Below are positions 23,616 to 47,551 of a DNA stretch of 64,000 bases, one piece after another; position 1 is the stretch's first letter, and each line of letters begins with the position of its first letter. The notes beneath the pieces were generated by a model that was not told the origin of the DNA, made no database searches, and saw nothing but the letters and a program-made list of their open reading frames with translations. The position numbers were made by a program, and so were the translations under genes. Source of the DNA: a virus (taxonomy: Duplodnaviria > Caudoviricetes); the IMG/VR virus record IMGVR_UViG_2751185783_000001, positions 47,168 through 111,167 of that record; one strand, written 5' to 3'.

Positions 23616-24374
23616 TTAGTAGAGGTAGCGGTCGCCCCACGGCACCGCGGCGGGGAACGAATAAATCGGGAGAACCTCGAAGGATCCGTCGGCGTCGCCG
23701 TCCTCGAGGTCACGGATCGCGGCTTGGAGCCGGTCGAGGTCTTTGTCCGCGCGCGCCTCGAGGGCGGCGGCGGTGGCGAGGCTGTCTTGACCGGTGCGGT
23801 CGTCGCCGTACGCGCGCAGGATCATCGCCGCGGCCCGGCGGGCGGCGATCGCCGACGCGAGGGGGTGCAGGCTGTCGGGGACCGTTCCGGCGAGGGCTTG
23901 GACTTCGGCGACCGCATCGTTGATGTGGCGCTGGGCGACGTCGCCGGTCGGGTTGGTGCGTTGATCGAACGTGCCCAATTCGATCGCGCTGCCGGGTGTG
24001 GTCTGGTCGACGGTCAGCCGCGGCACATAGGCGGCGACCCGGGACAGGCCTGGCGACCAGGTTGGGCCTCCCGCTGCCGGGGGTGCGGTGACCCACACCT
24101 CGACGTCTTCGGTGCCCTCACCGGTGCCGGTGGTCTGCCAGTGCAGGACGGTCCGGCCGGGCAGCGGGTAGACGATCGGGTCGACGGCCTGCCAGCGCTG
24201 CGTGTACTCGGCCGGGCTGGAGCCGGGAACCTGCACGAGTGGGCCCGCGGCGACCGGCACCGGCACGGCTGGGGCGCCGGGGAACACGGCGGTCAGCGTG
24301 ACCACGGTGTCGATCGCGGCCGGGGCGACGACGATCCACGGCTGGTCGGCGTCACCGACACCAAGATCCGACAT
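23616..24374 (-). CDS. head-tail adaptor with an extra N-terminal beta domain
   Basis: helical C-terminal half (WSP...VAAYVP...TNPT...AAMIL) of connector type; beta-rich N-terminal ~100 aa. Confidence 0.65.
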   Translation of the reverse strand: MSDLGVGDADQPWIVVAPAAIDTVVTLTAVFPGAPAVPVPVAAGPLVQVPGSSPAEYTQRWQAVDPIVYPLPGRTVLHWQTTGTGEGTEDVEVWVTAPPAAGGPTWSPGLSRVAAYVPRLTVDQTTPGSAIELGTFDQRTNPTGDVAQRHINDAVAEVQALAGTVPDSLHPLASAIAARRAAAMILRAYGDDRTGQDSLATAAALEARADKDLDRLQAAIRDLEDGDADGSFEVLPIYSFPAAVPWGDRYLY

Positions 24375-26488
24375 CACACCCCCGTTCCGAGGCCGCGGCT
24401 GCTGCCGGTCGTGTACGTGGGCCGGACGGCACCGGTAGTGAAGGCGCCCGGGCGGCGGGGCAGGATCGGGGTGTCGTTGCCGAACCCGGTCAGGGCGGGC
24501 AGGCTCGCGGCGAGGGCACCGGTAGCGGTCGCGGATCCTGTCGCGGCGCCGGCGAGCGCGGGTAGGACGGCGGCGGCCTGCCCGGGTGTGGTGAGTGCTG
24601 CGGCGATCGTGGCGGTGAGCTGCGGTAGCCCCGCCGACAGGATGGCGGCGACGGTGACGGTTCCGGCGGCGGAACCTGTGACGGTGGGCAGGACGGTCGT
24701 GCCGACGCCCGCGGTGGTGGCCGTGCCTGAGGCGGCGGCTTGGACGGCGGGTAGTGCCGGGGCAGCTGTTCCGGCGGCCCGCGCAGAACCCGCCCCGGAG
24801 GCGGCGAGGGCCGGGAGTAGTGCCGCAGCGGCGCCGGACGTGCTTGCGGATCCGGCCCCGGCCCCGGTGAGGGCGGGCAGCGACGCGCCGATCTGCCCTG
24901 ATGCCCCACCGCCGGTGGCGGCGCCGCGGAAGGCAGCGGCGAGCAGATACCGGTCGTAGGCGGGCCCGGTCCACGACACCGACGGCGTTTCAGCGGCAGG
25001 CCCGGCCGGGGTTTTCGCGGCGACGGCACCGTACGCGCCGGTCGTGCCGCTGCCGGACGACCCGGATGTCAGCCCGGTGTACCCGGACGACCAGGCGGGT
25101 GCGGCCGGGGCGGTAGTGAAGTTGTGGACGGCGGCGAACGCGATCACCAGGTCGTTGCCGTCGACCAGCGCACCGGTGGACGGGGCGGGGCTGGCGCTCG
25201 CGGCGAGGAACGGGGCCTGTTCGGCGACGCTCACGTCCAGGCCTGCGGTGTTCGCCACCCGCACCCACAAGGCGGACGTGTTGGAGGCGACCCCGCCACC
25301 CAAGTCGATGGTGGCGGTGCCGGTGCCGCCAGCACGGGTGTACAGGTAGGCGCCCTGGAAACCGACGGACGAGACGACCAGGTCCCAGCCGGGCACGCTC
25401 ACGGTGTTGTCGGAGTTGATGGCCAGGACATCCAGCACGCCGGGGCCGGTGGTGCCGCCGCCCGTGTACGTGACCACAGTGCCTGAGGTCGTGAACGCGA
25501 ACGCCTGCGGTGTGCCGGTGACGGTCGGCGCCACTGGTGTTCCGGTTACGTTGCCCGCTGCTTGGCCGGCCAGCGGGGGCAGGGCGGGGGTGCCTGTTGC
25601 TGACGCCCGCCCGGCACCGGTGGCCGTGCCGGTGAGTGTGGGCAGTGCGGCAGCCGAGGTTCCCGTGGCCCGGCTCGTGCCGGTCCCGGCCGCGGTGAGT
25701 GCCGGCAGGGTGGGCCCGGCTGTTCCGGAGTTCCGCACCGTTCCGGCCGCCGCGCCGGTGACCGCGGGAAGGACCGGGGTGGCCGTGCCCGTGCTGCGTG
25801 CCGTTCCGGATCCGGCCGCGGTCAGGGCGGGCAGCGCCGGGGTTGCGGTGCCGGAAGCCTGCGCCGAACCGGTCCCTGCACCGGTCACGGCGGGCAGTGA
25901 CACCGCGGCGGTACCGGTGGCACTCGGCACCGTGTTGACGTTGTCGGCCTCGGCGACGTTCGCCGTGCCGCTGTCGCGGTGCGCCTCGACGTTCAGACTG
26001 AGGTCTGCCGCGGCGGCCAGCCACGCCGGGGTGGTGAGCGTCCGCAGCGTCGTCCACGCCGACGCGTCCGGGCTCGTCTCGAACAGGGTGTTGCCGCCGG
26101 AGACCCGGATCCGCACCCACCGGTGGGAGGTCGCGCTGTACGCGACCGTTGACGGTGCCGGATCGTAGTAACCCGACCTGCTCTTGGCCTGGATATTGCC
26201 GGTGACCGTGTCGATGTGGATGCTGACGTCGGTGCCGCCGGGCTGACCCGGCGAGTAGAGCAGCACATCGACGTAGCACTCAGTCGCGCCGTTCGCCGCG
26301 GGCGCCCACACCTGGAGGTACACGCTGTCGAGGGTGTGGACGTACCCGGACTGGAGGGCGGCGTAGCCGGTACCGCACGGAATCTGGACCCGGCCGCCGC
26401 TTTCGGTGATGCCGCCGTACGAATTCGGCCACTTCGACGACAGGGTCCCGTCGTCGAAGTCGTCGACGAGGGTGGAGGTGGCGGGCAT
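24374..26488 (-). CDS. repeat-rich fibre-like virion protein
   Basis: N-terminal LamG-like domain and two blocks of 21-aa LPAL repeats flanking a second globular domain. Confidence 0.75.
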   Translation of the reverse strand: MPATSTLVDDFDDGTLSSKWPNSYGGITESGGRVQIPCGTGYAALQSGYVHTLDSVYLQVWAPAANGATECYVDVLLYSPGQPGGTDVSIHIDTVTGNIQAKSRSGYYDPAPSTVAYSATSHRWVRIRVSGGNTLFETSPDASAWTTLRTLTTPAWLAAAADLSLNVEAHRDSGTANVAEADNVNTVPSATGTAAVSLPAVTGAGTGSAQASGTATPALPALTAAGSGTARSTGTATPVLPAVTGAAAGTVRNSGTAGPTLPALTAAGTGTSRATGTSAAALPTLTGTATGAGRASATGTPALPPLAGQAAGNVTGTPVAPTVTGTPQAFAFTTSGTVVTYTGGGTTGPGVLDVLAINSDNTVSVPGWDLVVSSVGFQGAYLYTRAGGTGTATIDLGGGVASNTSALWVRVANTAGLDVSVAEQAPFLAASASPAPSTGALVDGNDLVIAFAAVHNFTTAPAAPAWSSGYTGLTSGSSGSGTTGAYGAVAAKTPAGPAAETPSVSWTGPAYDRYLLAAAFRGAATGGGASGQIGASLPALTGAGAGSASTSGAAAALLPALAASGAGSARAAGTAAPALPAVQAAASGTATTAGVGTTVLPTVTGSAAGTVTVAAILSAGLPQLTATIAAALTTPGQAAAVLPALAGAATGSATATGALAASLPALTGFGNDTPILPRRPGAFTTGAVRPTYTTGSSRGLGTGV

Positions 26489-28625: not shown

Positions 28626-29015
28626 TCAGCACTCCATCCACGTCACCAGCGCCGTGTCCGCGGCAGTGGTGAGGGCGACGCCGAGGGCCGCGCGGGCATT
28701 GTTGATGTCCCCGGCGGTCGCACCCGACGCGGCAGCGAGCGAGGCGACGTTCCCGGACGCGGCGGCGTACACGTTGTCCCCGGCGGTGATCGCACCGGCG
28801 GCGGTGGTGATGTGGACCTGGCCGCGGCCGTGCATCGGGCCTTCCGCGCCGGATGCGATGTCGCAGCCCGCCACTCCGATGACCTTCGACCCTGCGGTGG
28901 CGGTCGCGACGGTGCCGTTACCGGACACCATGAGCGTCTTGCCGCCGACGACGGCGCCGGAGGTGGTGACGGTGATGACGTCACCGGGCATGTACAGCGG
29001 GGCGTAGTCGGGCAT
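28626..29015 (-). CDS. capsid decoration/cement protein (DUF2190-like)
   Basis: VIGVAGCD...AGAITAGD...LGVALT. Confidence 0.8.
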   Translation of the reverse strand: MPDYAPLYMPGDVITVTTSGAVVGGKTLMVSGNGTVATATAGSKVIGVAGCDIASGAEGPMHGRGQVHITTAAGAITAGDNVYAAASGNVASLAAASGATAGDINNARAALGVALTTAADTALVTWMEC

Positions 29016-30124
29016 CAGGCACCGGCCTTCTGCGCGCCGAACACGCGCTCGTAGTCGGCTTCGAACGCGGTGTCCGCGCCGGACGGCTCGGGGGCGCCGG
29101 TGACACCGGACGCCATGACCGGCACGGCGTAGCCGACGGCGATCCGGCCGAGGGTGCGGGTGGTGACGCCCGGCGCCTCGTCGTAGTCCGTCTCCCACTG
29201 CTCACGCTCGTGTGGCTTGAACTTGCCCTCACGCTGCGCGGTGTCGAGAACGGATGCTTTGACGGTCTTCGCGGTGTCGGCGTCCTGCGCGGCGATCCGC
29301 GCGGACATCGTCTCGACCTGAGAGGCGAGAACGGTCACCTCCTTGCGGAGCTCGTCCTTCTCCGCTTCGGCCTTCTCCGCCTTCTCGGTGGCCGCGGCAC
29401 TCGCGGCGACCATTTCCGGTGTCGGCGCGGGTTCCGGAATAGGCTGGTCGGCCTTGGCCTTCAGCGCGTCGATCGCCGCGAGCGCGGCCGTCTCGTCGGC
29501 GTCAGCGTCGAGGCCGAGCCGCGAGCGCATCTCGTCGCTCAGGGACATCTTGTCCTCCAGGGTTGTGTTGGGGTCCGGCTCGGCGGCCGGTAAGGGTGTC
29601 GGCGCGGAGGCGTACACGACGGCGTGCACCCGCTCGCCGCAGTCGGGTGTGCCGGCGGTGGCGGCAACACCGAGCAGGCCGGGAAGGTCCTGCACGGATT
29701 TGAGGGTGGCGACGGCGGGCGGGGTGACACCGAGCAACGCGACCGCAGTCAGGGCGAACGGGTGTTCGTGGCCGAGCCCGCACCGGTACCGGTAGGCGCC
29801 CTCGATGCTGCGGTCGGGGTAGGCGGCGGCCTGCACCTGCGACAGCCAGGGCAGGGCCACCTGGTCGCCGATGAGGGCATGCCCGTCGTCGGACAGCCGC
29901 AGGTCTTCGAACCAGCCCAGGGCGGGTTCGCCGTCGCCGCCGTTGTTGAACCGCTCGTCGGTGTGCCCCAGCTTGAGCCGCGGCCGGCGGACGGCCGCGC
30001 ATTGTTGGGCTTCGACGGCGGCGGCCAGGTCGGCGGGGGTGGGGGACCAGGCGCCGGTGGAAGCGCCCCAGGTGCCGGTGCGGATGAGTTCGATGCCGGT
30101 GCGGCGCGCAAGGCCGGTGGGCAC
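29015..30124 (-). CDS. capsid maturation protease/scaffold (Mu I-like)
   Basis: LKLGH, PALGWF, YPDRSIE, LTAVALLGVTPPAV, then a coiled-coil scaffold region. Confidence 0.82.
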   Translation of the reverse strand: MPTGLARRTGIELIRTGTWGASTGAWSPTPADLAAAVEAQQCAAVRRPRLKLGHTDERFNNGGDGEPALGWFEDLRLSDDGHALIGDQVALPWLSQVQAAAYPDRSIEGAYRYRCGLGHEHPFALTAVALLGVTPPAVATLKSVQDLPGLLGVAATAGTPDCGERVHAVVYASAPTPLPAAEPDPNTTLEDKMSLSDEMRSRLGLDADADETAALAAIDALKAKADQPIPEPAPTPEMVAASAAATEKAEKAEAEKDELRKEVTVLASQVETMSARIAAQDADTAKTVKASVLDTAQREGKFKPHEREQWETDYDEAPGVTTRTLGRIAVGYAVPVMASGVTGAPEPSGADTAFEADYERVFGAQKAGA

Positions 30125-30160: not shown

Positions 30161-30298
30161 TTACTGGTCCGTAGTGACGCTCTTGCGGGTAGGGGATGCG
30201 GGACGGTACTGCCCGATCAGGTCTTGCAGTTGGGCGGAGAGGAGATCGTCCACGGAGGCCGGGGCCGCTGCGGCGGCGAGCATCTGCTGCCGGTTCAT
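30161..30298 (-). CDS. 45-aa hypothetical peptide
   Basis: ATGA overlap with the upstream ORF; GGAG RBS. Confidence 0.45.
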   Translation of the reverse strand: MNRQQMLAAAAAPASVDDLLSAQLQDLIGQYRPASPTRKSVTTDQ

Positions 30299-30477
30299 CT
30301 CTGCTCTCCGCCGGTGCTGCCAGGGACCGGGCCAGCCGCCGGTTCGGCGAGGACCGGCGGCTGGTAGCCGCCGTCCATCCGGTCTACGAGTGAGCTGGCA
30401 GGTGGAACAGCGGTGACAGTGGCCGGCACCTCGTCGGTTGCCCACCTCTGGGCAAGGGAAGCCGGTTTCGCTTTCAT
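30295..30477 (-). CDS. 60-aa peptide coupled to the ART gene (candidate inhibitor)
   Basis: ATGA overlap with the ART stop; GAGGTG RBS. Confidence 0.6.
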   Translation of the reverse strand: MKAKPASLAQRWATDEVPATVTAVPPASSLVDRMDGGYQPPVLAEPAAGPVPGSTGGEQR

Positions 30478-33400
30478 GCGATCACCTCGATGTCTAGGAC
30501 CCGGATACCGTTTTCGTCGACTCCGCGGTCGGCTACCACGCGACGACGCTGGCCGCGGGCGGTCAGGATTTCGGCTTCGTGCTGGAAATCAAGCCATACC
30601 TCGTCGGGACGCCCCATCGGGGATACCTGGACGCCGGGAGAGCCCTTGGGCAGCAAGATCCTCATCATGACCGGCGGCATGTCGGGTTCTTCCATCTGGG
30701 CGACTTGGGCGAACTGGCTGGCGACTCGGACGTCGGCGGTGGTGGAGGCGAAAGCCGAATCCTCCCACTCCATCCCGGTGACGTCGGGCCCCCAGGCGTC
30801 ACCGAAGATTTTCCCCGGGTCTTTGATCGTCCGGTAGACCAGTACGTCTTTCGGTAGCGGCGAGGCAGCCATCGCATCGTCGATCTTCTTCACCACATCG
30901 GTGATCTCAGGACCGCCATCAGCGGTACCACGCAGGTAGGAGTTGATCTCGGAGAACGCCTCGCCCTGGTATGTGGCCAGTGCATCCCCGATTACAGCGC
31001 TCTGGGATTCCGACCAGCCGGAAGGCACAGAAATGGGGATCCCGGACCCGAACCTGACGGGAACAGAATCAAGGCCGCCCTGACCTTGTGCAGCCTTCTT
31101 CGCTGCGGCATCCCAACCAGAGGCTGTCATCCCACCGGACACAACGCCACCCGGCGCTGGGCCGGCAGCGGGAGTTTCCTGCCCGGCGGGTACCGCGGTA
31201 CCGTTTCCACCAGCCCGGGCAGGGGCGGGCGCGGCTTCCTGTTTGCCCGCCTGCTGTCCAGCGCCGGCCTTCGGCAACACGCGGACGTCGATCTGGCGGA
31301 TCCCGTCGACCACACCGCGGTCGGTTACGACCTCGATCTCGTGGCCGCGGTCGATGAGGATCTCGGCCTCGGACGGATCACGTGGGTCGTAGAGGTCGAT
31401 CGCCTTGGTGCCGGCAGGGACGGCCACCCGCATCTGGACGGGGTCTTCGCCGCGGGAGAACGGGGCGATCGCGCCGGTGTCGGTGGACGTCGACAGGAAG
31501 CCGTCCTCGCGCCAGCGCATGCCGGTCAGGTCGCCGTCGAGGCGGTCGCCGAACATGGCCCGGGACTGCCGGATCCCGCGCAGGACGGTGATGTCAGCGT
31601 TCAATTCCGAGCCGGTCATCGCGTCGTCGATCCCGGCGATCGCCTTCTGGGTCTGGGCGTTGCCGGGGCCGCCGGTCCGCAGCGCGCCGTTGATCCGTTT
31701 GAAGTCGGTGCCGTTGCGGGAGTCCTGGTAGCCCTCGAGGCCTGCGCGCTGGGTGTCGGTCAGATCGTTGCCGGGCCGGTGCGGGCCTTTCGGGATGGCT
31801 GCGGAGACTGCGGCCCGGTCGATCTCGGCGGAAGCCGGCGCCGGGACGGCCGGTTGCGCCGGGGTGGGCAGACCGGTACCCGCCGTCGTCTCGCTGGGCG
31901 CAGGCCCGGACGGGGTCTGTGGCGCCGTCTGCGGGGCGGCCCCCTCCCCGGCGGACAGGCCCTGCTGGCGCTTGTCGCGGATGACGTCCGGTTTGAGGTC
32001 GTCGCGCCGGTCCGGGTCCGCGTACTGGGCCTCGAGGTCCGCGACCGCACGGGCGACCGCCGTGTCGATCTCCAGTTTGCCTTCGCGGGACTCGTGCCGC
32101 CGGTTGTGGGCCTTCTGCCTGACCTGATCGGCCAGACGACGGCCGGACATCCCGCCCTTGTCCCATTTGGCCAGAGCCTGCGACAGGGCGTCGGTCTCCA
32201 TGCCGTCACGGCGGACCAGGGGGATCGCCCACAGCTGGTCCATCAGCTTGCGCAGGGCGTCCGGGGTCGAGTCCGGGACCTCCGGTGCCGGGCCGTCGGG
32301 CGCGTCGAGACCGATGACCGCCAGTTGCACGGCCCGCTTACCGGGCCCGTCTGGCAGCCGGCCGGCGAGCATCTTGAGCTGGTCGAGCTGGGCCTGGGCG
32401 GGCAGACGTCCCATGACGGTGTCGGTTGCCATCCGGCCAAGGTGTTCGGCCAGCGGGAGGCCGTCGACGTCGAGCATCCGGTCGGCGCCGAGCATGCCGA
32501 CGGCCTGGCCGATCTCGCCGTCGGCGTGGAACGCGACCGGGCTGTCGGGGTCGGCGCCCCATTTGTTGTCCGACAGCGGCTGGGTGCTCATGACCCGCGG
32601 CAGCGGGCCACCCGGCTGGGCCGTCGGCGCGTCGGGCACGTTTGCGGTTGTCGGGGTCTCGGGTGCGAGGGCGGAGGAGGGCGGCGCCGCGGGGAGCTGG
32701 TTCTCCGGGTTTTCGCTATTCTGCACGGCGGCCGGTTCAGCGGCTGGTTCGGCCGCTGGACCGGAGGTGTCCCCGCCGTTGCCGCGCCGGTCCGGTTCGT
32801 TGGTGGAGATCAGGTGCTTGGGCTCAGGGCCGATGACGATCGCCGCGTCGAGTTCGGCCTGCGACAACTCGCCGCGGGCGGGGTCCGGCTCGAGGCGGAT
32901 CCGGCGTGCCCGGTCGAGGCGGCGCAGCTCGGCGTCGGCGTCTTCGCGGGACATGCCGGGCAGCTGGTCGCGGACCTTCGCCAACAGGACCAGGTCGCCG
33001 GGCTTGCGGCCGTCGGCGGTCAGGGCATCGTGGATGGCGTCCATGATCTGGTCGGCGGGCGTGGCGGGCTCGGCCCCACCAGCCGGGCCAGGGACAGAGA
33101 CGTCCCTACGGTTCTCGTCAGCGACGCCGGACGGCTTCGACACCGGGTCGGCCTTGGCGGCGCCGGATCCCTGGGAATCCGCACCGCGGTCCAGGCCTGG
33201 TGCCTGAGGGGTGCCCGCTTCCCGGTCGTTGTTGCCTTCGGTACCCATCTCGTCGGCGACCAGCGCATCCACGAGCTGGGACTTACGCAGCCTGCCCGGC
33301 CTGAGCCCACGCTCACGCATCATGGCCTGCAACTCGGGCACCCGGTTCTTCATCAGATCCGCACGGACCTGATCGGCGCCTTCCGGCTGCTCGCTACTGG

Positions 33401-34169
33401 CGTCGTCCGCTGCGGGCGCCTTCTCCGCGGGCGGGGGAGCCGTCTTCGCCGGCGCGGAAGGCCGCGCCGTGGGCGGAGCCTGCTCGGCCGGTGCGTCAGC
33501 GGACGGGCCGTCCAGCGCCTTCTCGTCGCCCTTGCCTGCCTCCGCGCCCTTCTTCGACAGCACGGCTACGTGCATGTCGTAGCCGCCCGCACTGTTCGCC
33601 TCGACTTTGGTGACGACCATGTCCAAGTCCCGGCCGAGGATCACTTCGCCGGTCTCCGGGTTCACCGCGGCGCGCGTACCGGCCGGGGCAGAAATACGCA
33701 TCCGCACGTCGCCTTTGGTGGCGCGGACCGTACCGACGGAGGTGGGCGCGTAGGCGGCGTCACGAACCCGCATGCCGACCAGGCCGTCCGGACCGGCCGG
33801 ACCGAACGCGGCGACCGGCACCCGCCGGGACAGCATCACGTCGTCGGGCAGATCCACCATCGCGGCGTCCATGGCCGTGACCGACGGGTCGCCGGTTTTG
33901 CCCGCACGCAGCGCCTTGTGGGTGTCGACGTACCCGCCCGCGACATACGAGGCGACGGCCTGGCGGTGGGCGGCGGGGGCGATCGGCTCGAGGTAGGCGG
34001 GTGCCTTGGTCCCGACGATGCCCTTCTTCGGCCGCAGCCCGGAGGTGATCTGTTCGGCCAGGCCGATCTCGGCCCGGCTGGCGGGCGCGGACCGGGACCG
34101 GGTGAACCGGCCGTTCTTGTCCCGCGGGTGCAGCGACGGGATCCACTTCTTGACGGCCACGATCACCAC
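30474..34169 (-). CDS. multidomain protein with three VIP2/C2-like ADP-ribosyltransferase domains
   Basis: LHPRDKNGRF N-terminal motif; ART2 VLRG/FLSTST/EAE; ART3 VYRT/FASTTA/EAE; degenerate ART1 LSRR/YAPTS/TGE. Confidence 0.88.
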   Translation of the reverse strand: MVIVAVKKWIPSLHPRDKNGRFTRSRSAPASRAEIGLAEQITSGLRPKKGIVGTKAPAYLEPIAPAAHRQAVASYVAGGYVDTHKALRAGKTGDPSVTAMDAAMVDLPDDVMLSRRVPVAAFGPAGPDGLVGMRVRDAAYAPTSVGTVRATKGDVRMRISAPAGTRAAVNPETGEVILGRDLDMVVTKVEANSAGGYDMHVAVLSKKGAEAGKGDEKALDGPSADAPAEQAPPTARPSAPAKTAPPPAEKAPAADDASSEQPEGADQVRADLMKNRVPELQAMMRERGLRPGRLRKSQLVDALVADEMGTEGNNDREAGTPQAPGLDRGADSQGSGAAKADPVSKPSGVADENRRDVSVPGPAGGAEPATPADQIMDAIHDALTADGRKPGDLVLLAKVRDQLPGMSREDADAELRRLDRARRIRLEPDPARGELSQAELDAAIVIGPEPKHLISTNEPDRRGNGGDTSGPAAEPAAEPAAVQNSENPENQLPAAPPSSALAPETPTTANVPDAPTAQPGGPLPRVMSTQPLSDNKWGADPDSPVAFHADGEIGQAVGMLGADRMLDVDGLPLAEHLGRMATDTVMGRLPAQAQLDQLKMLAGRLPDGPGKRAVQLAVIGLDAPDGPAPEVPDSTPDALRKLMDQLWAIPLVRRDGMETDALSQALAKWDKGGMSGRRLADQVRQKAHNRRHESREGKLEIDTAVARAVADLEAQYADPDRRDDLKPDVIRDKRQQGLSAGEGAAPQTAPQTPSGPAPSETTAGTGLPTPAQPAVPAPASAEIDRAAVSAAIPKGPHRPGNDLTDTQRAGLEGYQDSRNGTDFKRINGALRTGGPGNAQTQKAIAGIDDAMTGSELNADITVLRGIRQSRAMFGDRLDGDLTGMRWREDGFLSTSTDTGAIAPFSRGEDPVQMRVAVPAGTKAIDLYDPRDPSEAEILIDRGHEIEVVTDRGVVDGIRQIDVRVLPKAGAGQQAGKQEAAPAPARAGGNGTAVPAGQETPAAGPAPGGVVSGGMTASGWDAAAKKAAQGQGGLDSVPVRFGSGIPISVPSGWSESQSAVIGDALATYQGEAFSEINSYLRGTADGGPEITDVVKKIDDAMAASPLPKDVLVYRTIKDPGKIFGDAWGPDVTGMEWEDSAFASTTADVRVASQFAQVAQMEEPDMPPVMMRILLPKGSPGVQVSPMGRPDEVWLDFQHEAEILTARGQRRRVVADRGVDENGIRVLDIEVIA

Positions 34170-34178
34170 CCCGTCCTG

Positions 34179-36371
34179 TCACCACATGGGGGCGATGAAC
34201 CCTCGGCACCGTCCGCGGCCAGCGCATGACCGGAATCCGTTGTGCGGGTAGTCGCCGATCGCGGCCCGCAGGGTGGTGTACACCCGGCCGGACACGTCGG
34301 CGCAGGCCTCACACCTGCTGCGGTCGTTGATCTCGTTCGCTTGGAAGCGGGTGCCCTGCGGGGCCTGCTCAAGGACTGACAGGCGCCCGGCGTGCTGGGC
34401 GGCCGACAGCAGCGCACCGAGATGGTCGGCGACCATGCCCTTCTCGGTGGCCGACAGCCCGTTGAGGTGTTCACCGACCGCGTCGGCGATCTCACCCGGC
34501 GGGCTCCCGGCCAGTTGCAGCGCGGCCCGTCCGGCACCGGACGCATACCCGGCGGCGATGATGTGCGCGACTGCGGTTGCCGTGTCCCGGACCGTGTCCG
34601 CGGTGACGTTCCCGTCCAGGTTCAGGCCGTGCCCGGCGGCCTCGGCGACCACGTCGGCGGCGGCGGTCCTGGCGAGTTTGCTGCCCGCGGTGTCGAGGAC
34701 CGTGGCCTGCGCGGCGATCACCCCCGCCGACACGGCCAGTTGGCCGAGCAGGCTCACATCGCCGTGTTCGGCGGCGTCACGGGCTTGTTCGGTGAGTTCG
34801 TCGACCATCGGCCCGGCGATGGCGGGCCACCGTTTGAGGAGTCCGGCCTTGGCGTCTTCCCACTGCTGTTGCAGGTTCTCGGCCGCGGTATCGGCCTTCG
34901 CCGCCTGGACGGTGACGGGCTCGCCGGCGGGCTCCTGGCCGCCGTCGGTTTTCCCGCCGAACAGGCCCCAGTCCAGGTCGGCCTGCCGTGCGGCGACGTC
35001 GGGCGGGATGTCGATGGCGTCCGGTTCATCAGGGACGCCCGGCGCGGTGGCAGGGACCGGAACAGCGTTCAAGTCCGGAACCTCACCCGGCGTCTGGCCC
35101 GGTGTCTGCGGCGTGGGCAGGTCTACGCCCGGGGCCACGACCGGCTGCGCCGGCTGTTCCCGCTCGGGGAGCCGGTATTCGCGGCGTACCCACGCCTCGA
35201 GGCCGGGGTCGGCGGACATGGCGCCGGACGACAGGAGCAGTTGCAGCGACTCGGCGGTCACCTCACGCCGGGACCCGACACCGGACACGACCACGCGGGG
35301 GACCGGCTCGTCCTCGCCGTAGTTCCAGTCAACGATCCGGGCAGCAATCTGACGAGTGGCGACGTCCGCGATCAGCTCAGCCTCGGACTCGAGGGCCAGG
35401 TGCAGGGCGTCCATAAACGCGGTGCCGAGTGCGCGGCTCCCGTTCGGGGTTTCACCGAGTTCAAACGCATTCATCAGCGCGGACGCAGCACACTGCTGAT
35501 CGAGCCAGCGCAGGAACTCCTGCGACTGCGGTAGCCCGCCACTGATCCCAAGGATCTTCATGACGAACCCGGGCGGGGTCGCCGCACCCGCGGAGATTCC
35601 GGCACGGGCCGCCTGAGCCACCTGGGCGGCTTCGGCCATCTGCGCTTGGGTCGGGTTCGTGCCGGGGATCGGCTCGAGGACGGGTACGCCGGCGGACCAG
35701 CGGACGTTGGCGACGGCGTAGGCCCGCCGCACCTCCTCCTTGATCAGCCAGGAGGCGTAGGAGGGACGCAGAAGGGACGTGCCCGCCCAGTTCGAGCCTT
35801 CGCGGTCGCGGGCGTACCAAACCAGGTTCTTCGCCCGCATCTGCGGATTCTTCAGGTCCGACGCCTGATCCTGGGTGGCGCCGGTCAGTAGCCCGGTCTT
35901 GCCGTCGGTGTGGATGTGGCTGATGGTCCACTGCGGGCGATCCCACAATCCGGCCAGCCGTGCCTTACCGCCGACGATCTCGGCTTCCAACTCGAACGCG
36001 GAGAACCCGAACGACACCATGCGGGTCACCGCACGTAGGTGATCGCCCCACGACACACCGCGCAGCCGGGCCGCGCCAGGCTTGTCCTTGCCCTTGATCG
36101 CCAGGCCCATGCCGTCGGCCACGTGTTTGACGACCGCAGGCCGGCACCCTTCCGGGTCGAGCTGCCACTGGGCGCGGGTCAGGTTCAGCACCCAACCCGA
36201 GATGATCGAGCTGAGTTTCGGGTCGCGGCGCATCTTCGCGAACACCGGAATCGACATGGGGAACGTCAGATCCGGCACGTGTTCGAGGACGTCGAGGTAG
36301 ATGCCGGCGAAAGTGTCGTTGCCGAGCCGGTACGGGTCGACATAGCCGGACACTTTTGTGGGGGCGGTCAT
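34179..36371 (-). CDS. portal protein (Mu gp29/DUF935-like) with fused MuF-like C-terminal domain
   Basis: GTSLLRPSY, GSRALG, WVRREYRLP; C-terminal EINDRSRCEAC...CAGRGRCRG. Confidence 0.85.
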   Translation of the reverse strand: MTAPTKVSGYVDPYRLGNDTFAGIYLDVLEHVPDLTFPMSIPVFAKMRRDPKLSSIISGWVLNLTRAQWQLDPEGCRPAVVKHVADGMGLAIKGKDKPGAARLRGVSWGDHLRAVTRMVSFGFSAFELEAEIVGGKARLAGLWDRPQWTISHIHTDGKTGLLTGATQDQASDLKNPQMRAKNLVWYARDREGSNWAGTSLLRPSYASWLIKEEVRRAYAVANVRWSAGVPVLEPIPGTNPTQAQMAEAAQVAQAARAGISAGAATPPGFVMKILGISGGLPQSQEFLRWLDQQCAASALMNAFELGETPNGSRALGTAFMDALHLALESEAELIADVATRQIAARIVDWNYGEDEPVPRVVVSGVGSRREVTAESLQLLLSSGAMSADPGLEAWVRREYRLPEREQPAQPVVAPGVDLPTPQTPGQTPGEVPDLNAVPVPATAPGVPDEPDAIDIPPDVAARQADLDWGLFGGKTDGGQEPAGEPVTVQAAKADTAAENLQQQWEDAKAGLLKRWPAIAGPMVDELTEQARDAAEHGDVSLLGQLAVSAGVIAAQATVLDTAGSKLARTAAADVVAEAAGHGLNLDGNVTADTVRDTATAVAHIIAAGYASGAGRAALQLAGSPPGEIADAVGEHLNGLSATEKGMVADHLGALLSAAQHAGRLSVLEQAPQGTRFQANEINDRSRCEACADVSGRVYTTLRAAIGDYPHNGFRSCAGRGRCRGFIAPMW

Positions 36372-47167: not shown

Positions 47168-47551
47168 TCAGCCTCCTTGGCTGGTCGGGGAAGCTTCGCC
47201 GGGGTACATCCGCTTGCGAGTGATGCGCCGGCGCCGGCCCTCACACGCCTCACCCAGGTAGGGGTAGAGGTCGCTGGTGGAGTCGCAGTGCTGGATCACC
47301 CGTCGGACGATGTCGATGTCGCCGGGGATCGGGTCGTCGTTGTCGAGCGGCCCGCCCTTGCCCATCACGCCGTCGGCCTGCCCGGCCCGGTAGCCGAGGA
47401 CGTAGCCCATGACGGCGGCCTCGCGGGTGACCCGGCGCTCGAACTTCGTGAGGGTGCGCCACGCGGTGTCGGCCCGCTTGTCGCGTTGTTGCTGTCGGGC
47501 GGCGAAGTAGTCGAGGAGACCGGGCGGGAACTCCGACATCGGGGCGCTCAT
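47168..47551 (-). CDS. hypothetical protein
   Basis: REAAVMGYVLG; coupled. Confidence 0.7.
   Translation of the reverse strand: MSAPMSEFPPGLLDYFAARQQQRDKRADTAWRTLTKFERRVTREAAVMGYVLGYRAGQADGVMGKGGPLDNDDPIPGDIDIVRRVIQHCDSTSDLYPYLGEACEGRRRRITRKRMYPGEASPTSQGG

Follow-up and report, generated by a model that had tools for sequence, protein, structure and literature searches.

The locus analyzed here raises the question of why a phage should encode, between its portal and head maturation protease genes, a protein of 1231 amino acids (aa) that carries three ADP-ribosyltransferase (ART) domains in a single chain. The gene lies in a 64,000-nucleotide stretch of viral DNA, hereafter the window (positions 47,168 to 111,167 of IMG/VR virus record IMGVR_UViG_2751185783_000001; Duplodnaviria, Caudoviricetes), which is located on a 237-kb contig of a 10.3-Mb genome and the source of which is a prophage in a high-GC actinobacterium. 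An earlier note, drawn up from the sequence of this stretch, had proposed that the gene product is an effector that is packaged and injected. The present analysis makes a head-packaged, injected polyvalent effector the best explanation of the locus and, on the strength of gene context, a probable one. What is new here is the identification, from sequence comparisons, of an HPRDxxGRF motif followed by an ART domain (ART1) as the constant head of a protein family with shuffled cargo.

The protein consists of seven modules in one chain. The order in which the earlier note had listed them is correct, and their limits had been placed to within a few codons of those obtained here:

30474-34169, minus strand: the whole ART gene, 1231 aa, an uninterrupted open reading frame (ORF) with a GC content at third codon positions (GC3) of 0.847
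34104-34130, minus strand: HPRDKNGRF motif, aa 14-22, by direct reading (LHPRDKNGRF, aa 13-22)
33552-34007, minus strand: ART1, aa 55-206, with R115, PTS at 142-144 and TGE at 173-175; constant module of the family
33234-33386, minus strand: SAP/Rho_N-like helix-extended loop-helix motif, aa 262-312 (core ~270-307), from sub-threshold profiles and AlphaFold2 (AF2) helices
32805-33068, minus strand: winged-helix domain, aa ~368-455, from an AF2 model and VIA-align
32016-32612, minus strand: HEL, a conserved all-alpha domain, aa 520-718, modelled by AF2 with a predicted local distance difference test (pLDDT) score of 89.8
31275-31787, minus strand: ART2, aa 795-965, matching PF03496, with R864, STS at 893-895 and EAE at 934-936
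30477-31037, minus strand: ART3, aa 1045-1231, matching PF03496, with R1113, STT at 1142-1144 and EAE at 1198-1200; GC 0.63

The linkers between modules, described in the earlier note as Pro/Ala linkers, contain 27-47% Ala and Pro, and the last one is rich in Ala and Gly.

A search of 5.8 billion proteins returned 35 relatives of similar length, and residues 1-215, used as the query of an exhaustive HMMER scan against 1.84 billion cluster representatives, retrieved 233 clusters at E <= 1e-3, 64 of them at E <= 1e-30; the family thus comprises at least 233 clusters. Architectures were counted in the 168 retrievable sequences with profiles for ART1, the C-terminal ART type, the SAP motif, the winged helix and HEL, all five derived from the window protein and the first relatives found. 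The N-terminal module is found in 168/168 sequences, at the very N-terminus in 163, and is combined in 30 different architectures that range from solo proteins of 166 aa to giants of 3393 aa. The variable cargo includes zero to two extra VIP2-type ARTs, zero to two winged helices and HEL, often in C-terminal position, to which Pfam adds PI3/PI4-kinase-like domains in relatives and, in the distant relative P0092 as the sole case, a sub-threshold match to ART-PolyVal (PF18760; 22.5 bits against a cut-off of 31.2). The triple-ART build is recurrent rather than unique, because a survey of ART copy number in these homologues finds three ART-type domains in 15 of the 168 representatives, two in 51 and one in 102. 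The motif that precedes ART1 takes the family-wide form [HQ]PR[DG]xxG[RK][FW] in 144 of the 168 sequences, nearly always starting at residue 10-19 and with H, P, R, G, R and F almost invariant; it occurs in frame only once in the 10.3-Mb genome. By eye, a G-x-G-[IV]-Y-[LT]-S segment in some relatives (P0005, at ~1090-1250, and the C-termini of P0010 and P0018) resembles an ART of the PARP/H-Y-E type, and a Pfam search of P0005 and P0010 yielded no match at E <= 0.001 for it.

The position of the gene among head genes is a further line of evidence. In the window, the large terminase gene lies upstream of the ART gene, and downstream of it come a head protease gene and the genes for the major head protein and for a virion structural protein, in agreement with the head-operon placement of the earlier note. 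The immediate neighbors are:

34179-36371, minus strand: portal gene, 730 aa, Portal_Mu at E 2.8e-39 and phrog_113 at E 9e-51; the ART gene begins 10 bp past its stop
29015-30124, minus strand: head maturation protease/scaffold gene, phrog_3894 at E 1.4e-70, ~350 bp downstream of the ART gene

The same arrangement is seen in three independent related loci (an Actinoplanes contig, L001; a Phytohabitans chromosome, L002; and a 58-kb metagenome contig), in all three of which an ART-family gene directly follows the portal gene. Their common order is terminase, portal, ART-family gene, one or two small ORFs, a MuF or 288-aa gene, protease/scaffold, decoration protein and capsid; in L001 and L002 the latter place is taken by a separate MuF gene, and in the metagenome contig by the unannotated 288-aa gene. 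Furthermore, in four of the five family members whose module is not N-terminal, it sits behind a Phage_portal domain, giving three Phage_portal-ART fusions and one portal-MuF-ART-NUDIX fusion, and three of these proteins still have the HPRD motif at the junction. The fused metagenome proteins are P0137, P0103, P0104 and P0156.

The earlier note had called the upstream neighbor a portal-MuF protein. The portal assignment is sound, and the MuF part is supported only for the last ~50 residues, which match Arthrobacter phage MuF-like proteins at E 2e-7 in a tblastn search; the C-terminal half of the portal protein gave no match at E <= 0.09 in Pfam or PHROGs, and no BLASTP match to the MuF protein of L001. 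Unlike the related loci, the window has no separate MuF gene between portal and protease. The portal extension as a whole spans ~330 aa (34179-35180, minus strand) and is MuF-like only in these last residues, with a CxxC ... PHN ... CRG pattern. Downstream of the capsid gene lies another large gene (24374-26488, minus strand), the 704-aa product of which has as its sole match phrog_14065, of unknown function, at E 1.8e-34 over its first 318 residues.

Because the ART gene is part of a late operon, it might be supposed that its product acts only in the producing cell, as do ModA and ModB of T4, or that it is an assembly accessory, the ARTs modifying host or phage proteins late and the N-terminal module and HEL serving head assembly, with no ejection at all. 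The conservation of HEL and of the N-terminal module, neither of which shows a known enzymatic signature, would suit such a role, and T4 does possess non-packaged ART paralogues (PMC5512222). On the other hand, the portal fusions and the gene's place next to the portal gene, on its downstream side, speak for a protein that resides in the head, and such extreme variability of the cargo typifies conflict effectors rather than assembly factors. We therefore regard an exclusive role in the producing cell as unlikely.

The assignment of the gene to the minus strand deserves a comment, because at 70% GC both strands often contain long ORFs. An antisense ORF of 1047 codons covers 31086-34229 on the plus strand, and its GC content peaks at codon position 1 (0.865); it was rejected as a gene, since such a peak marks the shadow frame of a high-GC gene. 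By comparison of this value with the GC3 of 0.847 of the 1231-codon ORF, 30474-34169 on the minus strand is the coding strand. The true start may lie a few codons 3' of the first GTG, the database copy (P0004) beginning at residue 2. The matches of this gene to PF03496 are the only ones in the 10.3-Mb genome.

The closest relative of the protein, P0005 from Actinoplanes sp. NBRC 101535 (1930 aa), reveals how the cargo may be acquired. A 2447-bp stretch of the window (30263-32707) comprising HEL, ART2, ART3 and a 60-aa ORF is 97.4% identical to L001:11566-14004, in a different prophage carried by that strain, and the winged-helix segment (32774-33059) is 92% identical to L001:9384-9669. In contrast, the N-terminal module of P0005 is much diverged (E 1.8e-32, against 9e-96 for the self-match), the N-terminal third of the gene and its flanks have diverged from the window, and P0005 carries ~700 inserted residues. 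Given a cassette that is 97.4% identical next to a diverged N-terminal part, the comparison shows module exchange, apparently recent and of the kind known from polymorphic toxins. In addition, ART3 and the linker that precedes it (30477-31290, minus strand) have a GC content of 0.63 and a GC3 of 0.61-0.75, as against 0.70-0.77 and 0.85-0.96 for the rest of the gene, which suggests that this tip cassette came from a lower-GC source. Two small ORFs follow the gene:

30295-30477, minus strand: 60-aa ORF, a putative gene, with an ATGA overlap with the ART stop
~30161-30298, minus strand: 45-aa ORF, putative, chained by an ATGA overlap

Neither has a family match in Pfam or PHROGs. The 60-aa ORF travels with the HEL-ART2-ART3 cassette, and its only other copy, in L001, is 100% identical at the DNA level; the shared homology stops at 30263, ~30 bp past it. 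It could be an immunity gene, a chaperone gene or no gene at all.

If it were an immunity gene, the protein might be a prophage-borne polymorphic toxin directed against competitors or superinfected kin, with the C-terminal ARTs as toxic tips and the product of the 60-aa ORF protecting the lysogen or producer. The movement of C-terminal cassettes between phages together with this ORF, the end of the L001 homology just beyond it, and the pairing of different C-terminal domains with different small genes at other loci are all congruent with this idea, as is the report that MuF toxins, which are confined to phages of the temperate kind, usually have small ORFs downstream (PMC5576092). However, the 60-aa product is rich in Pro and Ala and without family match, and a single further copy that is fully identical gives no sign that the ORF is a gene; moreover, a gene in a late head operon would be silent in a lysogen. 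Delivery would in any case still proceed via the virion, so that a toxin of this sort overlaps in part with a packaged, injected effector. Taken as a separate explanation, the toxin appears quite unlikely.

With regard to what an injected protein might do, ART2 and ART3 are canonical ARTs of the VIP2/Alt type with a complete R/S/ExE signature, as the earlier note had stated of both, and are predicted to be enzymes. They match PF03496 (ADPrib_exo_Tox) at E 7.4e-18 and 65.0 bits and at E 2.4e-15 and 56.8 bits, respectively, against a cut-off of 23.4; the closest solved relative of both is VIP2 (E 4e-10 and 4e-8), followed by CdtA and iota Ia, and ART3 weakly matches the Alt-like phrog_802 at E 3e-8. 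The two share only 32% identity and, in a quick, weakly supported tree, group with different solo ARTs of other proteins. A local tandem duplication was rejected on these grounds, the low identity and the different sub-lineages (the latter resting on that weakly supported tree), and ART2 and ART3 are best described as probable shuffled cassettes, each of a sub-lineage that is also found alone in other proteins.

The company of a SAP-like motif and a winged helix also admits a different substrate. Some R-S-E ARTs, those of the pierisin group, modify guanine, and with two modules of nucleic-acid-binding type in the same chain the ARTs might be guided to bases or ends of DNA or RNA, as in pierisin, the actinomycete ScARP and Scabin, or DarT. 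Yet sequence searches against solved structures gave only VIP2, CdtA, iota Ia and Lmo0066, with no pierisin, Scabin or ScARP chain at E <= 0.01, and the presence of ExE rather than QxE, together with the affinity to VIP2 and Alt, favors arginine. Nucleic acid as the target thus seems highly improbable.

ART1 matches the libraries weakly (PF03496 at E 0.0023 and 17.7 bits, the cut-off being 23.4; phrog_3895 at E 3e-5). By sequence comparison its homology to ART2 and ART3 is clear, because it aligns to ART2 at E 3e-7 in BLASTP, ART1 domains cross-match ART2 and ART3 across the family in phmmer searches, and the ART1-type domains of relatives reach 40-69 bits against PF03496 (E 1e-11 to 1e-19). 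Arg115 and the catalytic, second Glu (Glu175) are retained, the first Ser is replaced by Pro and the first Glu by Thr, in accordance with the degenerate domain with TGE for ExE that had been described in the earlier note. Across the 168 sequences the Arg is kept in 160 and the catalytic Glu in 132, and the triad at 115/142/175 reads R-S-E in 69, R-P-E (the form in the window) in 48 and shows some other degenerate form in about 50. Of the nine members no longer than 320 aa, six carry a fully canonical R-ST[STA]-ExE; the ancestral state would therefore have been a normal ART with an HPRD leader.

Extra canonical ARTs accompany the R-P-E form in 34 of 48 sequences as against 18 of 69 for the R-S-E form, and the catalytic Glu is retained in 48 of 63 sequences that have lost the Ser as against 73 of 75 that have kept it; these counts, which are not phylogenetically independent, fit a gradual catalytic loss in ART1 after other ARTs had been appended. 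Judged by Arg and Glu alone, a tie between the erosion of ART1 and extra ARTs is unsupported, and it emerges only when the Ser-to-Pro change is counted. Since the two residues most critical for chemistry on nicotinamide adenine dinucleotide (NAD+) are retained, we consider it possible, and no more, that ART1 of the window is a pseudo-enzyme. The earlier note had seen in it a pseudo-enzyme adaptor as in VIP2: the co-occurrence of R-P-E with extra ARTs speaks for the pseudo-enzyme, but an adaptor copy arisen by tandem duplication in the manner of VIP2 was rejected, ART1 being the founding constant module of a family whose solo members have a canonical R-STS-ExE.

Among the remaining modules, the SAP/Rho_N-like segment of the window protein stays below the Pfam cut-offs (FANC_SAP 17.3, SAP 15.5 and Rho_N 14.7 bits; E 0.005-0.03). 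The earlier proposal of such a motif gains support from the orthologous segment of P0010, which scores 29.5 bits with the Rho_N profile (cut-off 24.9), from AF2 helices with pLDDT >90 and from the retention of the pattern in 15/15 close homologues. The winged-helix fold proposed for aa ~368-455 is likewise borne out by the AF2 model, which has a pLDDT of 85-91 and the secondary structure H-E-H-H-E-(H)-E-E, including one extra helix. The VIA-align Z scores of the domain run from 7 to 8.7. Winged helices make up 48 of the top 50 VIA-align rows (ORC1, Cdc6, MCM, SAMD1, histone H5, MarR and Fur), with the whole domain covered; those of ORC1, Cdc6, MCM and SAMD1 give Z 8.0-8.7, and the best (ORC/Cdc6/MCM) has Z 8.7 with a root-mean-square deviation of 3.8 over 75 aligned residues. 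Foldseek agrees in kind, with probabilities of up to 1.00 but an E of only 0.06. The model hence supports a winged helix, putatively of the DNA-binding type.

HEL is a helical domain, as had been noted, and is confidently modelled. It contains invariant residues, among them an RRHESxEGKxExD-type motif (an H-E-S-x-E-G-K run), and forms the C-terminal domain of many relatives of 1300-2100 aa, its position in the majority of large homologues. No Pfam match was found, and the sole PHROG match has E 0.064; structural searches gave best E values of 0.79 (Foldseek against PDB) and 0.46 (BFVD) and no usable match in the ESM Atlas, and wide VIA-align searches recovered only a generic four-helix bundle for residues 123-215 (Z <= 6.9). 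This lack of a structural match does not prove a new fold.

From these observations a coherent, if conditional, sequence of events can be proposed for a packaged and injected effector. The protein would be synthesized late, at the same time as portal, protease and capsid proteins, and would enter the prohead by means of its constant N-terminal module (HPRDxxGRF and ART1), possibly aided by binding of the SAP motif to DNA. Upon ejection with the genome into the next host cell, ART2 and ART3 would consume NAD+ and mono-ADP-ribosylate host proteins, with arginine as the most likely acceptor residue and the transcription machinery or defence proteins as candidate targets. The protein would be kept on nucleic acid by its SAP-like and winged-helix modules. 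The partly eroded ART1 may have a changed substrate or serve mainly as a packaging or anchor module. There is precedent for the general scheme: comparative genomics has established that ARTs are packaged in phage heads, are encoded beside portal genes and occur as Alt/VIP2-MuF fusions (PMC5512222, PMC9503650, PMC5576092). Packaging in the head has been the interpretation both for ARTs adjoining portal and terminase genes and for MuF fusions of Alt/VIP2 ARTs (PMC9503650). In actinophages, MuF-VIP2 fusions are predicted to be part of the virion (PMC7302621), MuF toxins have been proposed to be injected (PMC5576092), and T4 Alt is the experimentally established injected case (PMC5512222).

Several points weigh against this proposal. 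For every member of the HPRD-ART1 family, packaging, ejection and activity are deduced rather than observed; the protein is not fused to MuF, and a packaging role of the HPRD motif and of ART1 is only putative. Full-text literature searches returned no relevant paper on the HPRD motif or its variants, and the SAP match of the window protein lies under the Pfam cut-off. The whole protein has no tblastn match at E 1e-5 in 50,697 records of isolated phages, in which the best matches of the N-terminal module, at E 1e-4, are SEA-PHAGES genes for VIP2-like ART/MuF proteins; as there is no close relative among these phages, there is no virion proteomics to borrow. Finally, the small coupled ORF downstream could, as an immunity gene, fit a toxin that is used in another way.

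The earlier claim of a packaged, injected effector therefore stands as the best-supported reading on account of gene context, that is, the place after the portal gene in 3/3 loci and the four portal fusions, its packaging part being one that we infer. More tentatively, and with somewhat less than even confidence, it may be postulated that HPRDxxGRF and ART1 together form an undescribed head-targeting address module, docking to the portal or core and possibly processed by the protease, which would define, as a counterpart of MuF, a cargo family of its own in phages of actinobacteria. In this family a packaged ART that originally stood alone would have turned into a carrier, onto which further ARTs, winged-helix domains, a new helical domain and kinases were grafted. 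This constant module was not found in the literature searched, the coverage of which is incomplete and hence no proof of novelty.

What happens in the first minutes of infection is decided by injected phage proteins, and those of actinobacterial phages are almost unstudied. A conserved N-terminal tag is a potential signal for loading proteins into capsids, and the natural swaps of cargo behind it display activities that may be sent ahead of phage DNA: ARTs, kinase-like domains and an uncharacterised helical domain. As head-packaged ART effectors beside the portal gene are an established concept, the gain in that respect is incremental; the idea of polyvalent proteins, in turn, would be extended to VIP2/Alt-type ARTs.

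Compared with known systems, the protein shares with T4 Alt an R-S-E ART made late, a weak match to phrog_802 and a proposed early action on host proteins. Alt, however, is a single ART of a myovirus, encoded near baseplate genes and devoid of SAP, winged-helix and HEL modules, and its packaging has been demonstrated, whereas that of the window protein is predicted. The enzymatic components of binary toxins (VIP2, iota Ia, C2I and CdtA) resemble it in having tandem ART folds in one chain, one of them degenerate. In these toxins none of the motifs is left in the degenerate N-terminal domain, which docks to a B component that forms pores; ART1, on the contrary, keeps the Arg and the catalytic Glu, lies ~600 residues from the other ARTs and appears to be the ancestral constant module, and the setting is a phage head operon with no B component.

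The closest parallels are two groups of phage proteins. As in the MuF polymorphic toxins (Jamet et al. 2017, PMC5576092) and MuF-ART fusions such as the actinophage 'ADP-ribosyltransferase domain and MuF-like fusion protein' (PMC7302621), the gene lies directly 3' of the portal gene of a temperate siphophage and is followed by small ORFs, with a constant N-terminus, a variable toxic C-terminus and VIP2-type ARTs as common cargo. Unlike MuF toxins, it has several effector domains instead of one, and its constant part is not MuF: no N-terminal MuF domain (PF04233/PF06152 or MuF3/4) was matched in the window protein, MuF being a separate downstream gene in L001 and L002 and at most the tail of the portal in the window. 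Like the polyvalent proteins (Iyer, Burroughs, Anand, de Souza and Aravind 2017, PMC5512222), it is a large multidomain protein encoded among virion and packaging genes, next to the portal in the window and in the three related loci, with putative delivery, and it combines several effector domains per chain, multiple ARTs among them, with linkers, shuffling between relatives and predicted packaging and injection; its seven modules and the 30 architectures of the 168 sequences conform to the two or more effector-type domains in varying arrangement that mark that group, and relatives carry PI3/4-kinase-like domains and, in one case, a weak ART-PolyVal match. It departs from the polyvalent proteins in that each of its ARTs, ART1 included, belongs to the R-S-E, VIP2/Alt type, which the founding paper states to be absent from them (PMC5512222), rather than Tox-ART-HYD2 (ART-PolyVal, PF18760), and in that the hub domains MPTase, ArdC, SNF2 and methylase are absent from the window protein. 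In its working the protein resembles both polyvalent proteins and MuF toxins, while being a formal member of neither.

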